Part shown: one piece after another, positions 2,917 to 51,879 of the stretch
How the letters are laid out: every line of letters starts with the position of its first letter
Numbering within the stretch: position 1 is the stretch's first letter
Assembly: GCF_964355755.1 (NCBI RefSeq)
Contig: NC_092675.1
Location: forward strand, 19,812,912 to 19,876,911
DNA length: 64,000 bases
From: Antedon mediterranea
Taxonomy: Eukaryota; Animalia; Echinodermata
Direction of reading: 5' to 3'
Notes under the pieces: generated by a model
Told to the model about the DNA's origin: nothing
Database searches by the model: none
What the model saw: only the letters and a program-made list of their open reading frames with translations
Program-made: the position numbers and the translations under genes

Positions 2917-2925
2917 CTGAAGTGA
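2917..2925 (-). CDS. Candidate 9-nt phase-1 microexon (VTS)
   Basis: About 40-nt pyrimidine tract ...ttttttgtgtgtgcaccttttcccag|TCACTTCAG|gttaaa; UGC about 14 nt upstream of the exon. Confidence 0.5.
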
Positions 2926-3574
2926 CTGGGAAAAGGTGCACACACAAAAAAAAGAGAACAAAAAAATGTGCATGAAATTAGATGACGCATTGAGATATGA
3001 CTACACTATGGTTTTTAGTATGCATGTGTATGTAGACACATTATATAAATATATATAGACATTTATTACACTACAAGGATGATAAAAACTACTAATAATA
3101 TGTTCACACAGCCTCATGATTTACAGTTTTATAATAATCAAAGTGATTCCGTAAACTAAAAATGATTTTTTGTTTTATAATTTTCAAATAATTTGCATTT
3201 GTATAAATATCTAAAGACAAAAGTTTTCATACAACAATTAACTGAAGAATAGTTAAAATTAAAATAAAATTATCGAAAGCATTTCTTATATTTTATAGCA
3301 TTTATTTCAATAAAATTAAAATAAATTCAATAAAAAAAACCCATACGTATTTGCTATGGAAGATATGCCTTTAATAGTGTGACTGTGCCGGATTTTAACA
3401 TATTAACTTTTTCTTTAAAAATCTGACTTGAAATATCTGTTCATTGTCTGTGTGAACATAAATTTACTCTTAAAAATAGGAGAATAGAAAAATAACAACC
3501 ATGTTAGTATAAAGAAATAAAAAGACATCCATGTTAGGCCAATCATATCACAGCAGTCACTTTAAAAATGTTAC

Positions 3575-3631
3575 CTCGCCGATTTTTTCGTCTTCCCATA
3601 CGGCTGTCGTATGGCCCTGTCTCATGCAAGA
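3575..3631 (-). CDS. Candidate 57-nt phase-1 cassette exon (VLHETGPYDSRMGRRKNRR)
   Basis: tttttgcccactttgccttccatag|TC TTG...CGA G|gtaaca; GC-rich, with good splice sites and UGC motifs in the tract. Confidence 0.7.
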
Positions 3632-5238
3632 CTATGGAAGGCAAAGTGGGCAAAAATCAAGCATTAGTAAACATAGTAGTATAAATAACAAGCAATACCT
3701 TAGTGTATTAGGGGGTGTGTTGTGAAGGATTGTGGGTATTTTGTGGTACTAGGATTGTGTGTGCCTGTTAAAGGCTGTGTAGGTGTAGTTTAAGGTAGGT
3801 GAGTCTTTAAAGCTTTTATACAATTATTAGCCTTGTTATTGGCCTTTCTTGTTCTTGGAAAGAAATTAGTATATATTATATTAAGCTAGGTTTTCAGGTA
3901 GAACATAATTAATTCAGTTGTTAAGGGATTTCCCTTTTAGGTATATAGTTTTACCTCAATAACAATCAATAACAATCAATAATAATAGGCCTAATAATAA
4001 CGGGTATACCATGCATTAAACAGGATGTGAGTTTACAATATTTAAAATTGTAAAAACTAAATATACATTTTGATGTTTTTTACAAAATCCTGACAAACCC
4101 TTTTCAAATCATAATTTCTATTCTTAACTGATGTTATAATTTGACCGTATAAAATAAGGACTTCTCAACAATATCTATAATAATGGGATAATCGATCTGG
4201 TACAATATCAACTTATATATTAGGTTCTAAATACACAAAAAGGTGAAAATATGTTTGCGTTTGCAATTAAAAATATAATATATAAAATAAATACTAAACT
4301 AAACAATCTTAATATGATCCCTAATAATATTAGACCTACTAACATACATGCTTAAAACATCTAACATTCACATAAAAACTGTAATTACTATTTTTAGGCA
4401 TAGCATAAATGGCGTCAAACACATTGTTTGATGTGAGGCTTAAAGGGGGTGATCAACATGGAGAAAATTTTATCTTTAAATTCTACAAAATCATTCAATT
4501 TGACACTGTATCATCATCTACCTATACATATATTTACATGCACTAAAACATGTACTTATCACAATCATTTATTGCAAAATGTGAATAGAATTGATTTTAT
4601 TTTTATACTATTTATAGTTCACAAAATACAGAATAAAGTGAATAATGGCATACCTCTAAATCCATAAAATTACTAAGTTAAATCTTGAGAGGTTGTTTAT
4701 ATGAAAGTTAAAATTTCTTTTTGAGAAATTAATATTAATAAATACAGCAATATTAGCAAATACAGTATTCAAAATTAAATGATTTTATCTGTGCCCGCAT
4801 GACATACAAATTTAATTATTTATTTATGCTGCAAAACTATTTTTTTAATTTGAAGACTTATTATTTTTGTAATTAATTTTACATTTAATAGTTACCATGA
4901 GTACCAGTATATTTTTTGTTTGATGATTTCATAAATATAAATTACCACTTTAAACGGTATTATTATAGTATTTGGAACTTATTAATTTTAAAGAATTTTA
5001 TTATTTTAATGTGAATCCATTCTAACCATGTTAAATGTAGATTTGCAATGTAATAAAAGCTATGAATATGCAAATTACACACATGAATATGCATTGAATT
5101 AATGCAACACATGCAAATTAATTATAGGATTAGCGACCTACAGGGTTACTAGTTAATTTTCTATAAGTACACAGTTAAAATACAACATATTTATCAAGAA
5201 TTCTAGTGTGCTGGTATCAATGGTGACCCCTGACCTAC

Positions 5239-5289
5239 CAATAGTGACCCCAGACTGTCGAAGGTTACATGTGTAAACTGAACAAGAAC
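5239..5289 (-). CDS. Candidate 51-nt phase-1 cassette exon (GSCSVYTCNLRQSGVTI)
   Basis: tttatcaattttatttag|GT TCT...ATT G|gtaggt; stop-free and symmetric. Confidence 0.5.
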
Positions 5290-5654
5290 CTAAATAAAAT
5301 TGATAAATACAATATAAAGTAAAAAATACTTTTAAATGAAATATATGTGAAAAAGAAAATGTTTTTATCACCTTTGAAAGAATTATTTAGGAAATTATTT
5401 TGAGCTTAACAATAATAAAAGACGGTTAAAAAACAACTGAATAAATAAATCATTAATAAAAAAGCAATTGAAATAAAACCAAAAAATCATATACCTTCTT
5501 ATTTCTTATCTTATAATCTTTCTCTTCTTATAACAACAAATTACCAATAAACCCGATTCAAAGATGTTTTATTTAGTAAACATTTTTTTTTTTAAAGTGT
5601 TGGTATATGTATGTTTGTGATAAATTTAGAAATGGTAATTGAAAAAAAAAATAC

Positions 5655-5696
5655 CGATAGTAAAGGGTTTCTTGCGACGTTTTATAACAATCCGAT
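5655..5696 (-). CDS. Candidate 42-nt phase-1 cassette exon (DRIVIKRRKKPFTI)
   Basis: attacacctcttag|AT CGG...ATC G|gtattt; polybasic KRRKK. Confidence 0.5.
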
Positions 5697-7839
5697 CTAA
5701 GAGGTGTAATATAACTAAAAGCATTTTAAGTATTTTGGAATAAGTTTTAGCCATTATGTAAACTTCTTGTACTCATACGTCTTTATTGCAGACAACTGTG
5801 CAAAACGGTTTGCTCTTCGGTATCTTTAATTTATGTAAGAGCTGTAACGGTAGGTTTTTTAGCGTTTGGATATTGGCAAGCTCTTTAATTTACATGTAAG
5901 TTGATGCCAAGTTGCCGAGATGTTCTGAAATGTGAAAGATGTCGATAAGTTGACATGGAAAGTAAAGTTCTGCATATGTAATTAGGACATTACTAAAGGT
6001 CAAAGTTTAAGCCAAAAACGCATTCATACTTCTCATTATGAAAAGAAATAAATTGATAGATAAGAATAACTATAAAAAACATCCATGATGTTTTAAAAAT
6101 AGGCTGTTAGAAAACTTATACCGGTAAATAATTTTTAAATAAAAAATGTTTTAAAAATTTGGAAATTAATTCTTATAATTGCTTTATTAGTTATTATTTT
6201 ATATTTTTTTATCCGATTTATTAAAAAAATAAAAAACACCACACCTACTTGAATAAAGTAACATAAGTTATACATACATAATATATACATACAGGTGGTT
6301 ATGAAAACAAAATTGTTGTGTGTGTGTGTGTGTGTTAATAGTTAGAAATTTATAAATACTGTTAAACAGTATACCAATGTATTTAATCTAATTCACCTAT
6401 GACCTCTGAAAAATAAACCATATACTTTTCTAACACTAGATAATGAAAAAAAAACTTTCAAATAATGCTAAATAACAAAACAGTTATTAGTAACTGTTTA
6501 GTCAAGTAGAGATGGTGGTGGTCCTTTACACATTATTGGAACAGATAACAATTTATTGTAATGAAATGTTCACCAAAAAGAAACTCATTGAATTAAAAAA
6601 AAAACATATGGCATTAAAATAAAACAAAAATCACAAAAGAAACAACAAATAATAATACAACCTGTAAAAGAATACAAGATGGAATAAATTATAATAATTT
6701 TAAATGAATAAATATAACTTACAAACATATCCATAACTAAATATTCACATTGAATAAAACTATTCATAAATACGAATATTCATTATATAATTTACATTCA
6801 TAATTAATATAGATAATAAATGTAAATATTCCTATATACATATCATATTCAACAAACATGTACATACAAAGTAACATACATTAATGATTTTCTTAACATA
6901 AATGAATATTCATAATAATAGTACTAAATATTCATGATAATAGTGAATATGCAAAATAGAAAATGGCAGTGCATGTCACATAATGAATAACATAATCCTG
7001 TAGATGAAATAAGTAAATCACTGTAAATAAAACATAATAATTATGAATAAATATGAATATATGATAACGATGCTACAAATATAAAATGTCATGTGATAGG
7101 CAAAAGCGCATGTGATGGGAAGAGCATAAACCGGAGAGCATGGGAAGACACAGGTTTGGAAACAAACACAGTTATACACACAATGGAATAATCTGCAATG
7201 AAAGCAACTATTAATGTCATAACTTATAAACCAACTACAGATTGATAATGCATATATGTTACAAATAAAAATATTTTTTAATTCTTCAAAAAAATGCGCT
7301 TGAAAACAAGTTAGCAGCAATGTTTTGTAAAGCATGGATCATGTCTTAATAGACCATTTAATTGACTCAAAATATCATCATCTGTCAATGGTTAAAGAAA
7401 ATGAGTAAAAAATTATTAAATCATTGGTTATTTTTGTCATCGTTTTTTTTTTACAAATTTAGTTTTGGATTCAAACAGAAAAAAATAATTAGTATAATAC
7501 TATATAATAATAAATCCAAAGGCAAATTACTGAAAAAAATGACAATGCTGTGGGTACTATATAATAATATATATAATAATAATATTTTGTTTTTTCCATT
7601 GTTACAGATTTATTTTAAGTTCAACAAAAATGGTCTATATTTTTTACATTTTAAAGCAAAACAAAAAAACGGGATGTTTTTAATGCCAAAATAATTGCAT
7701 AATTTCTGGTATGGCGACCAATACCACATGATACAAAAATGATCTGGAGTTCAGGATGCTGACAACTAAAAAAAATTTCAACAAACTCATTCAAGACTTT
7801 AAATAACAAAATAAAAAATCTTCTAAATTTGATACATAC

Positions 7840-7869
7840 GCAGCGATATGCCCGAGACAGATGGGGTGT
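7840..7869 (-). CDS. Candidate 30-nt phase-1 cassette exon (DTPSVSGISL)
   Basis: AG-free pyrimidine-rich stretch, then aaag|AC ACC...CTG C|gtatgt; GC-rich island; the AAG acceptor is suboptimal. Confidence 0.4.
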
Positions 7870-9527
7870 CTTTCATGTCAGGGTAGATAGATGAATAAAA
7901 TGAAGAAACATAGATGGATGAATATTACTAATATCATGCTATGAGGTATAACCTCCAGGTGCAAGGATGATTACTATATTAAGTATGGTAATGATTTTTG
8001 CTTAAAACTTAAGTGCTTGTTTTGATAAGATTTATTTGAATAAATAAAATATTATCTCAAGAAAAAAAAACTGCTGAAAGAAGAAATTCATATAAGAATT
8101 CTTTATTTTCCAAAAAAAACCGGTCAAAACCTTTCGGCCTAAATGCTTGTTATAATGAAATACCATAGAAATAATATATCTATGAATATACTAATTAAAG
8201 TTGATTTCATTTTAAATTCAAGGGGTGTTTTTTCTTTTCTTGAGAAATAATTGTTTATCCCATTAAGTGTTTCTTATACAAAACATGACTTTTAGTTTAT
8301 GCAATTAGAATAACACTTTATACATTTGGAATGAATGAGAGAACTAAATTGACTTCAACTCAGGATAATTTGTAACAAGTCATTATTAACAATTTGCTAG
8401 ACATTTCAACATACTCTTATTGCCATCTTATTTACCGCAATTTCAAATTTTTCCTGACAGTTTAAATAAAAATAATTGAGGCTGGAAATTCACTGTGTCA
8501 GCAAGTAAATTATTATAAAACTGTTAAGGAGTGTTCAATTTATACTTGTTTTCATGTTTTAATGATGTTCAAAAAGAAAAAATGTTTTCTATAAAATAAA
8601 CATATTTATTTACTATAAAACTACACCTTTACACTATTGTAGATATTGTATATTAAGTTATGTTAATTTACCAATGTTATATTTACTATTCTAGATGCTA
8701 TGATTGCCACTAATATAGATTTAGAAATGCCAGATTTAAAGAAATGTCAGAAATTTTGAGAATAAAATTTTTAAATATAGGCCTACAAAAATATATATAT
8801 TTTTTAATAGTAGAAGTAATAATAGTTTAAATTCATGTTTAATTGCATTATGATCTGTAAAATGTTCTTTTCAAGTTTAAATCAATTAAACATGATATTG
8901 AAGAGTTTATACTTTTAGCTTAACATAAGTAAATATGAAGATGTATAGGCAGGGAAAACAATATTAGAATATACTAATAGTACTACATTATGATTTAGAA
9001 TGTAAATCACTATAACTGACATTTATACAATTGAGTTTTTCTCATAATAAAATATCTCCAATTTAAATAAATTCAAATAGGTAGCAATTTAACCATACAC
9101 GCCAGAATGTGTACTTTATATTTTAAGTATAAATTATCTTAAACACTGAATGACAGTTGGTGTCATATTAAGTTGATCTCATTCATAATAATTTACATAA
9201 ACATGTTGATGCACTAATGATGGTGAAGCATGCAGTCAGTGGTATATCTAGTCTGGATGTGAGAGGGGTGGGACAGTAAAGGGAAAGAATAGACTGAAAG
9301 AGAAGATGAACATTTAAAATATCTTATCTTTATGATACCACAGATTTTGAATTCGCAGGAATAACCAAGGGAATTTTGAATGTTTACATCCCTACAGTTA
9401 TCAACACAAACTTTCTCCTAGATATACCACTGTACAATTAGCTGTTAGTTGTCAGAGCTTATTTTTGGAAGTTTATAAAGATAAATTCTGATGATGTGAG
9501 GATGAGTAGAAGTCCAGCAGCACTCAC

Positions 9528-9602
9528 CAGATGAATTCCCGTTTTCTTCCAAGGGTATTGATTCACCAACCTCGCTTTGATTTGTATATTTCAGTCCCTT
9601 CA
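9528..9602 (-). CDS. Candidate 75-nt phase-1 cassette exon (VKGLKYTNQSEVGESIPLEENGNSS)
   Basis: tttttttggtgtttcatcag|TG AAG...TCT G|gtgagt; strong donor; linker-like peptide. Confidence 0.7.
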
Positions 9603-11124
9603 CTGATGAAACACCAAAAAAATGAAGTGAAAAGTAAGCAAATACCAAGAGAAAAGAAGAGAAATTTATAAGATTACAAATGAAAAGATTATAAGAATTA
9701 TCATAACCATGACAACATTTGCAACAGACCAATTATGATCAATAAAAAAATAAACGAAAACATTATTATCAACTACTTTCAGTAGACTTCATTTTTAGAA
9801 ATCAGAGCATGTTAAAACTAAAATAGCAATGATATAATTAATGTTTACAGAATTACTAAAATATTAATTGCAATATATTTTTATTATTATTGATATGAAA
9901 TTTATGTTGTTTAAAAGATTGCATTATAAGTAAACAATAGTAATGTTAGGTTTGCGGTACACCATATGTTTATAATATATGGTTGAAAATGGCTTGAAGT
10001 TTCTCCAGAAGACGGTAGTAGAATAACAACGGAAACATCAAGACATTCTCAAAAATACTCTATTTCCTTTTGAAAACAAATGTTGTATTGCAAACCTTAC
10101 TTTACTAGAAATGTATGTAAATATTATAGATACATTTGTGGAATATTGTTAATGCGATTTATTGATATTAATGATATTAGTACCTATATTAAAGTTTATT
10201 ATCAAATATTTTAAACATTATTCTTATCACAAAAATACCATTAAAACCAAGTTTCATCTATGATGAATGGAGATTCTTAATTTTTACAAAATGGGAACAT
10301 GGTTTGGCAAAGGTGTTTCCCTTGAGGTTATACAGTAACATATCCCTCTTTTGGAACATTTATTCAGGAGAAACTGCTATTAAAGGAACATTTAACTTGA
10401 AATTAATAAGGTGGCAGTGTATTTTTAACACAGTACACACTTTTGATGTCTCCTAAATAGGGGTCCTGCTGTATATATCATTTGAAATATAACATTTGAA
10501 AGATGTCTATTTCTTACTTGCCATTAAAATCACCATTTTCACACCTGAAACAGCATTATGTTTGAGCTAAAGTGGTATTCTTTCTTAGATTTATCAATTC
10601 AGTGATTTAATCGTAAATCTAAACTTTTAAATTCATGTTGGTAATGCTTAAAGATCAATCTTTTCATTACAGACTATTCAATTATTTATTTACATAATTG
10701 AAATTAATACCAATGTGCATATTAATAGAAATCAAATAAATGAAACAAGTGATCATTTATAGTTCTTTTGACAAGAATAATGGGAAATCGATCTTTAAAT
10801 CTATTATGTCAATGAAGTCTAGAAAACTGAACAAAATAATAATCAAAAAATTGGTGATGATTTAAGAAATGAAAAACTAAAAATGAAGACAAAACCGTGA
10901 TGATCTGAGATGATAATGACGATGAGTCTTACAGAACCTAAGCAATCTAAAATGAATTATTGTGAGTGATGAAAATACAACAATAATCTACAGTAGTATG
11001 TGAACAGAAATACAATGAATAACATAAAAGAATGCAGGCATCTTTCACTGCTGAAAACAAATCGTATCATTAAAATGTAGTAGTTCATTACAATAAGCTT
11101 AACCATAATATCATCGCTTTGTTA

Positions 11125-11285
11125 TGCTTGGTTTCAACTAGAGACGCAATGCAAGAACGTAAGCACAATGTAAGTGATTTGACCAATCACAAGCAATGGA
11201 TTATTCATACTGTCGCTTGTCATTGGTCAACTTACTTTACATTGCGTCTACGTCCTTGTGTTGTGTCTCTAGTGGGAACCATGTT
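11125..11285. mobile_element. Palindromic MITE (Harbinger-like)
   Basis: About 70-bp imperfect arms: TGGTTTCAACTAGAGACGCAATGCAAG...GACCAATCACAAGC and GCTTGTCATTGGTC...TGTCTCTAGTGGGAACCA. Confidence 0.75.
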
Positions 11286-12807
11286 TTACTCTTATAGGTA
11301 TTTCAAATTATATTTATAACTAGATTTTAATTTGCATTTTGATTTATAGTAGGTTATTCGCGTCAACGCTGTGCATGTACATTATAATATGTGCACAGGA
11401 ATTGGATGAATGCTATCCTATAAACTGATGTATATATGTATAGTGCTAAATTTGGTCTATTAACGTATTATAGGATATTAATTATGTGCACATTCCACCA
11501 TTGTAGCCAGAATGATGCATTGTGGGTTTAATGTATGCATGTATAGCTACAAACTTTATTGTACATCCCACAATACATCCTCCTTAAAATGGTGGAATTA
11601 TAAATAAATAAGGAGAATTTTTAAATAATATAATACAGTTGCAGTACATATGTTATGGTGGGTTGTTTATGGTGTTTTAGCTATAGAGAAGGCTGTGTAG
11701 TACATTTTTATAATTGCACAAAGCAAGCAATTTATTTTTAAAAGAATTACATTAAAAATATATAATTCAATTATATTTAAGTTAGTGTAGGCATTAAATA
11801 TTGGGGATATTTTTATTTGTCTTTGGTTTAGTGAATCAAAAATAGATTTTAAATTTCAATAGTATGTTTGGAATATAAATATATCATTATTAACGATAAT
11901 TTTAATGGAATGCAAAAGGGTAACAGGTTTCAGAGGTTCAACATCATTCAATTCAGGTTGAAGAATTTTATTAAAATTTTTTTTACAAAATAAGTGTTAA
12001 TATTTATTTAGAATGAAATTATGAATTATGATGATGATATTATTGTTAATAAATCTACTGATGATGATTATATCATTATTATATCATAACGTTCTATACT
12101 ATTTACATTATAATAATGTTGATATTGTGTATGCTGATTTTGATAATAATGATTATAGATAAAATGTTTTTGAAGATTAATGAAGATACCATGATCATGA
12201 TGTTAATACTACTAGTGATTCAATTTTAAATGTATAATAATTATTATTAGGAATAACTATTATCAAATGACAATAAGGACTAAATATTGTCTACTTGAAT
12301 ACGTCAATATTGGACAGGTAATAGTACATTCCAATGTCAAAATGCAAGAGAAAAAGAGTGGTGTAGGGGCTGAGGAAAAGGAACAATAAGGATGACAACA
12401 AAACAAAGGAATACGACGGGAACAAATACAGGAGTAATAAATTGCGACTCCCAACATCAAATAGATACACATAGTTTCTGGATCAAATAACTTCAACATA
12501 ATGGTATATAAAACAATCGTTACTGGTGGATACTATACAACTTCACAATTGAATTCATATTCATTAGGATCATGAATTGTATTTAAATTCTATTGTCTTG
12601 CAAATTCATTAGGTGATTTTGGGCGCATTCATATAGCACATGCAAATTGAATATATCTTAGTCTGGGATAATAATTTGGTTTTGGGGGGAAATCGTGCTG
12701 GTTGTAGGTCACTAAAATACATATTCATATCAAAATTTACATATTCATGTCAAAATTAACATATTCATGCAGCTTTTTGTTATAAATATTGTTATCAATA
12801 AAACAAC

Positions 12808-12873
12808 CTGGAGTTCTAATGCTGGCTCTTGAGAATATTCTTCGATGATAAGTATTACGTCGCCGTTTGTTGG
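12808..12873 (-). CDS. Candidate 66-nt phase-1 cassette exon (ANKRRRNTYHRRIFSRASIRTP)
   Basis: atctttctctcttcactatag|CC AAC...CCA G|gttgtt; long pyrimidine tract; stop-free only in the required phase; donor is weak. Confidence 0.6.
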
Positions 12874-13812: not shown

Positions 13813-13889
13813 CATTGTCACAACTGCACTGTTTGATTTGAGCAACCTCTCTGATATCACCATGGCAAGAACGACAGTAATAGAATGCT
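13813..13889 (-). CDS. KCNMA1: Slo1 exon carrying the CxxCH heme-binding motif
   Basis: cag|A GCA...AAT G|gtaact; 77 nt; AFYYCRSCHGDIREVAQIKQCSCDN (cf. vertebrate [24 protein letters not shown]). Confidence 0.95.
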
Positions 13890-23913: not shown

Positions 23914-23967
23914 AACTAATTGCATGTCTTTAAAATCCGAATCACAAGCACCGTCACTTTTATTGGG
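23914..23967 (-). CDS. Candidate 54-nt phase-0 cassette exon (PNKSDGACDSDFKDMQLV)
   Basis: ttttactctctcag|CCC...GTT|gtaagt; strong acceptor and donor; cluster of UGC motifs upstream. Confidence 0.6.
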
Positions 23968-25297: not shown

Positions 25298-25869
25298 CTA
25301 AACAAACATTTGAAAGAAGGACTATCAAACCTTGTTATCTGGACTTTCCTATTTAAAAGGTTATGGTTAAAGAAAAGAAAGAAAAAGGGAAGAAACACAA
25401 CAAAAATTAAATAATAGAAATAGGGGAATACATCCACAAACAAATGGAAATGGGCTGGTTCTATGGGTAACAACAAAACATAACAACACTATTTAATATT
25501 TTAAGTTATTTATTGTATCCTTATCTAACCTAATTCATGCTCTGATCCATAATGATAGTGGTGTTTTTAAAGGAATACATTAATTAGTATTACTATTGTC
25601 TTAAAAAAGAGGGTGAGGTTGTGAATGTCTGTAGTACACATACATTATGCTAAATCTTAAAAAAAAATTAACTTTTAACAGAGCTATGAGCCGCTTAATG
25701 AACAAAAGTTTGAAATTCAATTGGTACATCATATTGTTGGGGAATGATAAAAGCCATACAATATATAGAAGCTATGCCATGCAAGGAATGGATATGTAGT
25801 GCCTCCATAGTGTCATTTAAAATTCACAATTACACACTCCACGTTATTACTGCTAACATTATAATTGAT

Positions 25870-32231: not shown

Positions 32232-32270
32232 ATAACAAATCTGGCCCATAAAATTAGTGGCTGAAACAAT
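32232..32270 (-). CDS. Candidate 39-nt phase-0 cassette exon (IVSATNFMGQICY)
   Basis: ttttcgatcctatttag|ATT...TAT|gtacgt; stop-free and symmetric with the phase-0 host intron. A competing tttcag acceptor lies inside it. Confidence 0.35.
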
Positions 32271-50442: not shown

Positions 50443-51750
50443 GTACTGGTACTGGTACTGGTTCAAATAACCGTCTCACAGAGACATCTGGTAGCCATTG
50501 ACTTGAAGTTGGCATTTGGATGTGTTACTTTTAAATGTAGGCCTACAGTATGAGAGTGACTACTACCAAATTACACAGTCACAAAACAACTTATAAAACA
50601 GTTCATATATACAGTTAAAACATTGCTGGGAATTATAAATTTCTGTTGAAGCAGGCTCTAATGAAGTTGCATCTAGTAAGTTGACTTTGTTGTACAACTC
50701 TATCAAGTACTGATGGTATCTTCCGACCTCTTCGTTTACTTTGTGTTGTGTGAAAAGTAAGAATTTTTGTAGGATCTTCATTTTCTTTTCTAATTACATG
50801 TCCGATCCAGTTGAATTGTTGCTTGTAGACATATTCTTCTAGCGGTTGACAGCCAGTAATTTTGTAGAGATCGTCATTATCAATTACGTAACGCCAGTCT
50901 ATATAGTTTTCATCTGTTTCAGCATCTGAGGATATGTCTACATGGTTTGGTGGGCAGACTCTTTGAAAGCCATTCACTAGCATTCTTCTTAGGAAGGTTT
51001 TGTATGTTGTGCTAAGTTTGGACATTTCACTTCCTGTTGCCCTCCAAGCATGGCAACCATAGGTGAGTCTACTCCTAACTAGACCATTAAGAAACATCAT
51101 TCTTGTTTGTAGGTGGATCGTTCTGTTGGTAAGCAATGCCCTATTCTCTGCAAATGCTCCTTTGGCTGAATTGATTCTGTATTTTACTTCTTGATCTCCA
51201 ATATGAACATCATTGTAGGTAGCCCATACACCAAGGTATCTAAAGTGTGTTACGTTGTTAATGTGTACGCCGCCAATTTGTATGATGCATCTTGGGTATT
51301 CTTCAACTTCCTCTTTCCAGTTCCATATAATGGTTTCTGTTTTGGGGGCACTAATTCTTAGGCCAAATTCCAGACATACTTTATTCAAGATGTTCACAAT
51401 GGTTTGCAGTTCTTCTTGTGACCAGGAGCTTACAGCAAAGTCGTCAGCATAGCCACTTTCAAAGTCGTCATAGATGCCCCTTGATGGTGCTTTACATCTT
51501 TGAGCACGATTTGTAGCTTCAATAGGAATTAGGTATTGTATCATTAGGCCATCCAAACTAGCATCTTTACAGCGTTGTTTGAACACTCTAATAACGTAAT
51601 CAAAATATTGGTTAAACATGCTGGTACTCTCAATACCACCCTGTCGCACCCCAGAAGATGTTTCGAACTTATCATCACTCGGATCGTCGTCAGCAAGGTA
51701 TGCTTTCGTTGAGCTGTACAGTGATTGTATAATGTCAATCATAGTAGGCC
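50443..51750 (-). mobile_element. 5'-truncated non-LTR retrotransposon (RTE-like LINE), recent insertion
   Basis: Intact 369-aa RT C-terminal ORF, short 3' UTR, (CCAGTA)4 tail at 50438-50461, and identical 129-bp direct repeats on both sides. The clade assignment is an inference. Confidence 0.92.
50633..51742 (-). pseudogene. Reverse transcriptase, C-terminal half of LINE ORF2 (N-terminus lost by truncation)
   Basis: Motifs GVRQGGIES, YADD, FGLRISAPKTE, FRYLG, LTYGCHAW and WIGHVIR; no stops. Confidence 0.93.
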
Positions 51751-51879
51751 AGTAGACAGTGAAAATCTAATAATTATCTTCTTGTCCATGCTATTTCTAA
51801 GTTCCGTTTTTGTAGTCCACAGTTGAACGTGAGAACTTGATTTAATTTCCATGTTATACCAGACAATGTATTTGTACTG
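51751..51879 (+). repeat. 129-bp target-site duplication, copy 2
   Basis: Identical by eye to 50314-50442; abuts the truncated 5' end of the LINE. Confidence 0.93.

Follow-up and report, generated by a model that had tools for sequence, protein, structure and literature searches.

Introduction

The linker between the RCK1 and RCK2 domains of BK (Slo1) channels is a known site of alternative splicing, and the linker of fly slo is among those spliced alternatively. The closest described system is site C2 of vertebrate KCNMA1. In the mouse this site (site 2) is described with no insert, with the IYF exon, with STREX, with both or with a 28-residue exon (PMC3840924), and STREX is described as a polybasic, PKA-switched and palmitoylated segment (PMC3256903; PMC4141542). 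C2 variants are reported to differ between muscle types (PMC3393747) and STREX to be developmentally regulated (PMC1562363), while at site 1 the SRKR exon is reported to work through phosphorylation of an adjacent constitutive serine (PMC3840924). In Caenorhabditis elegans slo-1, alternative exons of the linker interact functionally with an RCK1 site (Johnson 2011, cited in PMC3840924), and nematode slo-1 genes have both conserved and clade-specific splice regions, the numbering of which is not tied to C2 (PMC4270693). Here we describe a 64-kb window (the whole stretch of DNA analysed, from contig NC_092675.1) of the crinoid Antedon mediterranea, the minus strand of which carries a Slo1/KCNMA1 BK channel gene. 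We consider it highly probable that this gene has a crinoid version of C2, with five well supported cassette exons (A, B, E, F and H) and a likely sixth, a microexon of 9 nucleotides (nt; G), which are partly coupled in their use and are predicted to tune channel gating and the response to kinases.

The gene and its C2 intron

RefSeq Antedon isoforms X1–X3 map to the window letter for letter from residue 130 to cassette F, residues 130–727 being placed exactly, and one window exon used as a query returned crinoid proteins with a 100% match. In isoform X1 (protein P0143) the Ion_trans, BK_channel_a, Slo-like RCK and Slowpoke_C domains all score above the Pfam cut-offs. Inclusion and skipping of exons were counted over RefSeq isoforms, which are automatic gene models; we used 12 of the 12 numbered models for Antedon and 18 of 21 for the crinoid Anneissia japonica (X1, X12 and X17 were left out). 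Without inserts, the proteins of the two crinoids are identical at 1017 of 1100 residues.

The constitutive exon that closes RCK1 (AFYYCRSCH...QCSCDN; positions 13813–13889, on the minus strand like all of the features below) contains the CxxCH motif and is present in all 12 Antedon and all 18 Anneissia models. It ends with QCSCDN and one further base, giving a phase-1 donor. The next constitutive exon in every RefSeq isoform is G-TLTFPDL, for which no mapping position was found within the 64-kb window, which puts the intron at more than 13.8 kb instead of the 12.2 kb given by the initial annotation of this stretch. QCSCDN at the junction aligns with KCGCKR of fish, and what varies there among the isoforms is just the first residue beyond the junction. 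Judged by aligned position and phase, the intron after the CxxCH exon is the phase-1 BK splice site C2 in the RCK1–RCK2 linker, the site of vertebrate STREX and IYF.

It resembles vertebrate C2 in having its junction just after CxxCH...CxC, in its phase and in holding several combinable, frame-keeping cassettes, and C. elegans slo-1 in having alternative exons in the same linker. It differs from vertebrate C2 in that the crinoid peptides are unlike STREX and the fish exons, in its five to six cassettes and in the use of one GC donor. The initial annotation, made from the letters alone, had proposed seven phase-1 cassettes at the STREX-equivalent site of a BK channel gene. The gene, the site, the exon end and the existence of a cassette array are all borne out, the last by the RefSeq models. 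All seven segments are indeed bounded by AG and GT, divisible by three in length and free of stops in phase 1, and they are richer in GC (0.38–0.60) than the window (0.29). As exons they fare differently: four (A, B, E and F) are present in RefSeq models, one (G) is likely from its acceptor and two (C and D) resemble chance.

Cassettes A, B, E and F

In the RefSeq models A, B, E and F are frame-keeping cassette exons that are either included or skipped, and three of them (A, B and F) are conserved in Anneissia. Cassette A (66 nt; 12808–12873) is included in 8/12 Antedon models and is identical in Anneissia at 21 of 21 residues; it is polybasic, with eight Lys or Arg among 22 residues and a kinase-like R-R-N-T motif. 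Cassette B (75 nt; 9528–9602) is slightly acidic, is included in 9/12 models and retains 22 of 24 residues in Anneissia. Cassette E (51 nt; 5239–5289), included in 6/12 Antedon models and in 0/18 from Anneissia, was found in Antedon only when the two sets were compared; it is the sole cassette with cysteines, of which it has two that are not adjacent. Cassette F (57 nt; 3575–3631) is included in 8/12 models and is identical at 14 of 18 residues, the substitutions being conservative. Its end is polybasic, and its final two arginines form an R-R-x-S/T motif with the Thr or Ser of the next exon: R-R-G-T when F is joined to the next constitutive exon, and R-R-A-S if it were joined to H. The acceptor of F has a UGC and a branch-point motif.

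Splice scores were obtained from a small splice-and-composition model, which had no more than 16 of the gene's other exons as its training set and under-rates C-rich tracts; feature counts of acceptors were therefore used alongside it. The scores of E, F, B and A (12.4, 11.9, 9.7 and 7.2 bits, respectively) are, together with that of H, at the top of the list for the intron.

Cassette H and its predicted GC donor

The initial annotation took 1527–1611 as the exon downstream of the array. This segment is 85 nt in length, which is not divisible by three, and would leave phase 1. Past 1527 the frame stays open up to AG/GCAAGT at 1474, giving a cassette of 138 nt and 46 codons (H; 1474–1611) that is phase 1 at both ends and has the GC donor CAG/GCAAGT. 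An orthologue with the same end is included in 9/18 Anneissia models; against this annotated cassette the H peptide is identical at 22 of 42 residues (E = 1e-11) with the same terminal residues, and overall identity between the two crinoids is 23/45 (51%). H has the highest splice score in the intron (19.1), and AGGCAAG occurs only twice on the entire minus strand of the window. We infer that H is used in Antedon through its GC donor. Only two matches to H beyond the crinoids were found among 1.84 billion representatives, and both were rejected as homologues since they are repeat-like, unrelated proteins.

No run recorded as RNA contains the stretch, which is evidence in neither direction. Sequencing reads were compared as contigs of four of the five listed runs over 1300–2800 only, A to G lying outside that interval, and no splice joint is listed in these contigs. 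In run X1, for which RNA is no more than a guess, a contig that stops at 1473 is followed by one that starts from 1502, with a 30-base overlap; the bin depth allows for an unlisted 30-base piece at a depth of about 3.3. Contigs of runs X2–X4 continue uninterrupted through 1473. The branch in run X1 coincides with the predicted GC donor of H and gives a weak hint of its use, but an allele difference could also account for it. No variants fall within the 138 nt of H, compared with 12 in about 1013 nt, a difference that is not significant (p of about 0.2).

We note a good GT donor at 1527 within H (score 4.7), which would yield an 85-nt, frame-shifting form after RCK1 and could in this way lead to truncation or degradation of the transcript. 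Short multi-copy repeats are present at about 2420–2465 and 1660–1710, where many unrelated contigs from most or all runs pile up.

Candidate microexon G

Candidate G (9 nt; 2917–2925) would add V-T-S to the linker. Its acceptor has a 73-nt AG-free zone that is 80% pyrimidine, a nearby UGC and a CTRAY branch motif, and the first GT after it lies 9 nt on and in frame. Among 2312 background AGs, that of G is the sole one to combine an AG-free zone of at least 40 nt, at least 70% pyrimidine, a UGC and YAG; over a grid of 20 threshold pairs, G stands alone or among at most five. An AG-free zone, a pyrimidine tract, a UGC and a branch motif make up the code described for eMIC-dependent exons in 10.1101/2021.02.24.432780. 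G and F resemble the neural microexons under eMIC/SRRM3-4 control in their long AG-free zones, pyrimidine tracts, UGC and CUAAY-like motifs, and from these features neural control of the eMIC/Srrm type may be inferred for both. We regard G as a likely, though unproven, microexon. With H and G, the Antedon gene model would be corrected by one missed GC-donor exon and one likely microexon.

Candidates C and D

The intron contains 344, 401 and 430 open AG-to-GT segments of 3–150 nt and of a length divisible by three in phases 0, 1 and 2, respectively. As the counts are similar over the three phases, openness in phase 1 is by itself no evidence of an exon. The initial annotation had suggested counting wrong-phase candidates as a null. 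When the filters were relaxed just far enough for C and D to pass, and with the five supported exons masked, five acceptors passed in phase 1, five in phase 2 and two in phase 0; the same filter gave 3, 5 and 2 acceptors in the other 42 kb. C and D are thus matched by equally many wrong-phase candidates, an outcome that the initial annotation had itself named as refuting. A, B, E, F and H, with scores of 7.2–19.1, lead the list for the intron.

Neither candidate C (30 nt; 7840–7869) nor candidate D (42 nt; 5655–5696) is present in any of the 12 Antedon or 18 Anneissia models, and each is probably no exon. Their splice scores are below zero (−1.6 and −0.8), as is that of G (−0.8). The acceptor of C is AAG, compared with CAG or TAG in 21 of 21 supported acceptors, and C is open in three frames. 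D is open in two frames and has an AG exclusion zone of 16 nt and a weak donor; 129 of the 2312 background AGs are equally good. Comparison of C and D with 15 linkers gave no significant match (best shuffle p of 0.017 and 0.065, respectively, in 105 tests). Both are likely to be chance look-alikes.

A strong acceptor that the initial annotation does not list was also noted at 12369, AG-free for 76 nt with 82% pyrimidine. The 42-nt segment that it opens (12328–12369) is open in phases 1 and 2, is in no model and lies within a pyrimidine-rich tract, and is probably due to chance.

Combinations of cassettes

All of the cassettes are phase 1 at both ends, and any subset of them therefore keeps the frame. 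The 12 Antedon models use six of the 16 possible combinations of A, B, E and F (ABEF in five models, AB in two, none in two and ABF, BEF and F in one each), and the 18 Anneissia models use 12 of the 16 possible combinations of A, B, F and H. B comes after A in each of the 16 models that contain A (8/8 in Antedon and 8/8 in Anneissia), which suggests coupling of A and B, and E sits between B and F in all six models that hold E. The length rank of Anneissia X17, which was not seen, may fit A alone. As far as the gene models go, the array appears to be partly coupled, and the free choice among up to 2^7 linkers that had been proposed for it is not supported.

Comparison with other lineages

The array had been presented as an independently evolved module. 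Its exon content is indeed lineage-specific, but arrays at this place are not peculiar to crinoids. Decomposition of differences between protein isoforms (and not of genomes) indicates, at the same aligned junction, three cassettes in Acanthaster, two each in Patiria and Asterias, four in Apostichopus, two in the hemichordate Ptychodera, about eight in the ribbon worm Lineus, two in hagfish and four in the pipefish Syngnathus, with a three-residue exon in other fish. The first residue past this junction changes in sea stars, a sea cucumber, acorn worms, Lineus, hagfish and teleosts. Unrelated exons have thus come to occupy the vertebrate STREX site again and again, in deuterostomes as well as in a ribbon worm, and the crinoid array is one such case, in which a known splice hotspot holds exons particular to the lineage.

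The crinoid cassettes share the junction with the other echinoderm and hemichordate arrays, and a polybasic first cassette with those of echinoderms; their peptides differ in being unmatched beyond chance. The polybasic first segment starting A-D-Y/F is common to sea urchins, sea stars, a brittle star and sea cucumbers, and crinoid A is possibly, but not necessarily, a homologue. Comparison of the crinoid cassettes with non-crinoid linkers, including STREX, gave no match beyond chance after 105 tests. Matches of B to sea-urchin linkers (p of 0.008 and 0.016) and of E to hagfish (p of 0.0025) were dropped on this account. When short crinoid pieces of the linker were sought, none of 31 candidates reached E ≤ 0.1.

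The initial annotation saw no likeness to STREX in any of the peptides, and we agree: in a search for homology to the vertebrate exon (58–61 residues) the best shuffle p was 0.027 in 105 tests (B against fish STREX, score 22). The Cys-Cys palmitoylation pair that stands behind a polybasic stretch in STREX is present in no cassette, and A, F and H have no cysteine. A polybasic stretch with a PKA-type Ser or Thr is present, as a motif only, in A (eight Lys or Arg with R-R-N-T) and in F with its next exon (R-R-G-T). By analogy, the crinoid array may resemble STREX in charge and phosphorylation, but with no Cys-Cys pair in any cassette it is not STREX.

No paper on echinoderm BK splicing was found in a literature search that lacked most subscription journals. 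What is new here is exon H in Antedon, candidate G and the pattern across lineages. To specialists the surprise will be limited, as this is a hotspot of textbook standing and public gene models already contained four of the exons. The arrays nevertheless form a natural series for asking which properties of the linker (charge, kinase sites or length) tune BK gating. A more ambitious view, which we offer tentatively and would not presently favour, is that the Slo1 C2 intron has been a nursery of exons since ancient times. Separate arrays would have been assembled in it from unrelated sequence by crinoids, by sea stars, by sea cucumbers, by acorn worms, by ribbon worms and by vertebrates. They would have converged on a polybasic, kinase-switched cassette and, in crinoids and vertebrates, on a 9-nt neural microexon, V-T-S being the counterpart of IYF; of the six crinoid exons one, with 100% identity, would be frozen and another would be gated by its GC donor, and F would write a PKA site onto the exon that follows it.

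Proposed role and alternative readings

The RCK1–RCK2 linker comes after the haem motif and is described as unresolved in structures (PMC12346439). Inclusion of a cassette would make the linker differ in length, in charge and in its phosphorylation sites and is predicted thereby to tune BK gating and the response to kinases. A and F would act as polybasic, phosphorylation-switched segments by analogy with STREX and SRKR. A disordered linker would tolerate inserts and, since any subset of cassettes keeps the frame, would likely allow each lineage to gain exons of its own.

Several points count against an array of six functional exons. The pair of cysteines needed by the STREX switch is missing, the functional role of every crinoid exon is a prediction by analogy, and the combinations in RefSeq isoforms may not equal those of true full-length transcripts. 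H is in none of the 12 Antedon models, its conservation is the lowest among the cassettes, and run X1 shows no branch at its acceptor. G is in none of the 30 RefSeq models (12 Antedon and 18 Anneissia), the thresholds applied to it were chosen after it had been seen, and its donor, CAG/GTTAAA, is weak (−1.6). Finally, this intron has 3.6 candidates like C and D per 10 kb, compared with 0.7 per 10 kb in the gene's other introns. C forms an island of 60% GC and has an AG-free zone of 56 nt, and D shares its polybasic character with A and F; we consider each of the two rather unlikely to be real.

The alternative that survives best, although we think it unlikely, is that the disordered linker simply tolerates the cassettes, which would for the most part be filler and would hardly affect how the channel behaves. 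Exon content is unrelated between classes, H lacks an outside relative among 1.84 billion representatives apart from the two repeat-like proteins, and deletion of IYF is reported to have had little effect on mouse BK current (PMC3840924). Against this, A and B are identical at 21/21 and 22/24 residues in two crinoids, the changes in F are conservative, and a polybasic A-D-Y/F first cassette is common to the sea urchins, sea stars, brittle star and sea cucumbers.

A less probable alternative is that Antedon uses only the four exons modelled by RefSeq, G being a chance occurrence and H decaying, with the GT at 1527 shifting the frame. The lack of both from the Antedon models would fit, as would the identity of H between the crinoids, which is below those of A, B and F, its non-canonical donor and a scarcity of variants that is not significant. 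Against this, H retains an open frame of 46 codons, its end is conserved and its splice score is the highest in the intron; in addition, AGGCAAG is rare on the strand, the contigs of run X1 branch exactly at 1473 and the acceptor of G is unique among 2312. The preferred reading remains that of five supported cassettes and a likely sixth.

An extension of the model in the initial annotation would have the seven segments and H all be genuine exons, each chosen independently of the rest, for a maximum of 2^8 variants of the linker. This is very improbable: the seven do keep the frame and are richer in GC than their flanks, automatic models readily miss short exons and C and D have the attractive features given above, but C has its AAG acceptor, C and D are open in extra frames, match nothing significantly in 15 linkers and are in 0/30 models, as many phase-2 as phase-1 acceptors pass the same filter, and the regular pairing of A with B and the fixed place of E speak against independence.

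Other features of the gene

RCK1 has a second splice site, which follows AMRSNSE and at which the RefSeq models have three phase-0 cassettes, at 32232–32270 (39 nt), 25331–25348 (18 nt) and 23914–23967 (54 nt). Never more than one of these is present in any of the 12 Antedon and 18 Anneissia models, and they therefore look mutually exclusive. Sea stars, a sea cucumber, sea urchins and Ptychodera also vary at this place. Outside the window, a further optional exon follows the TLTFPDL exon (proteins P0143 and P0132); its peptide is wholly different in the two crinoids, with 22 residues and a polybasic end in Antedon and 28 residues in Anneissia. An intron of the channel gene also contains a 376-codon open frame (50639–51766) with a partial RVT_1 match (E = 7e-13), which we take from its motifs to be a likely 5′-truncated non-LTR (long terminal repeat) retroelement.

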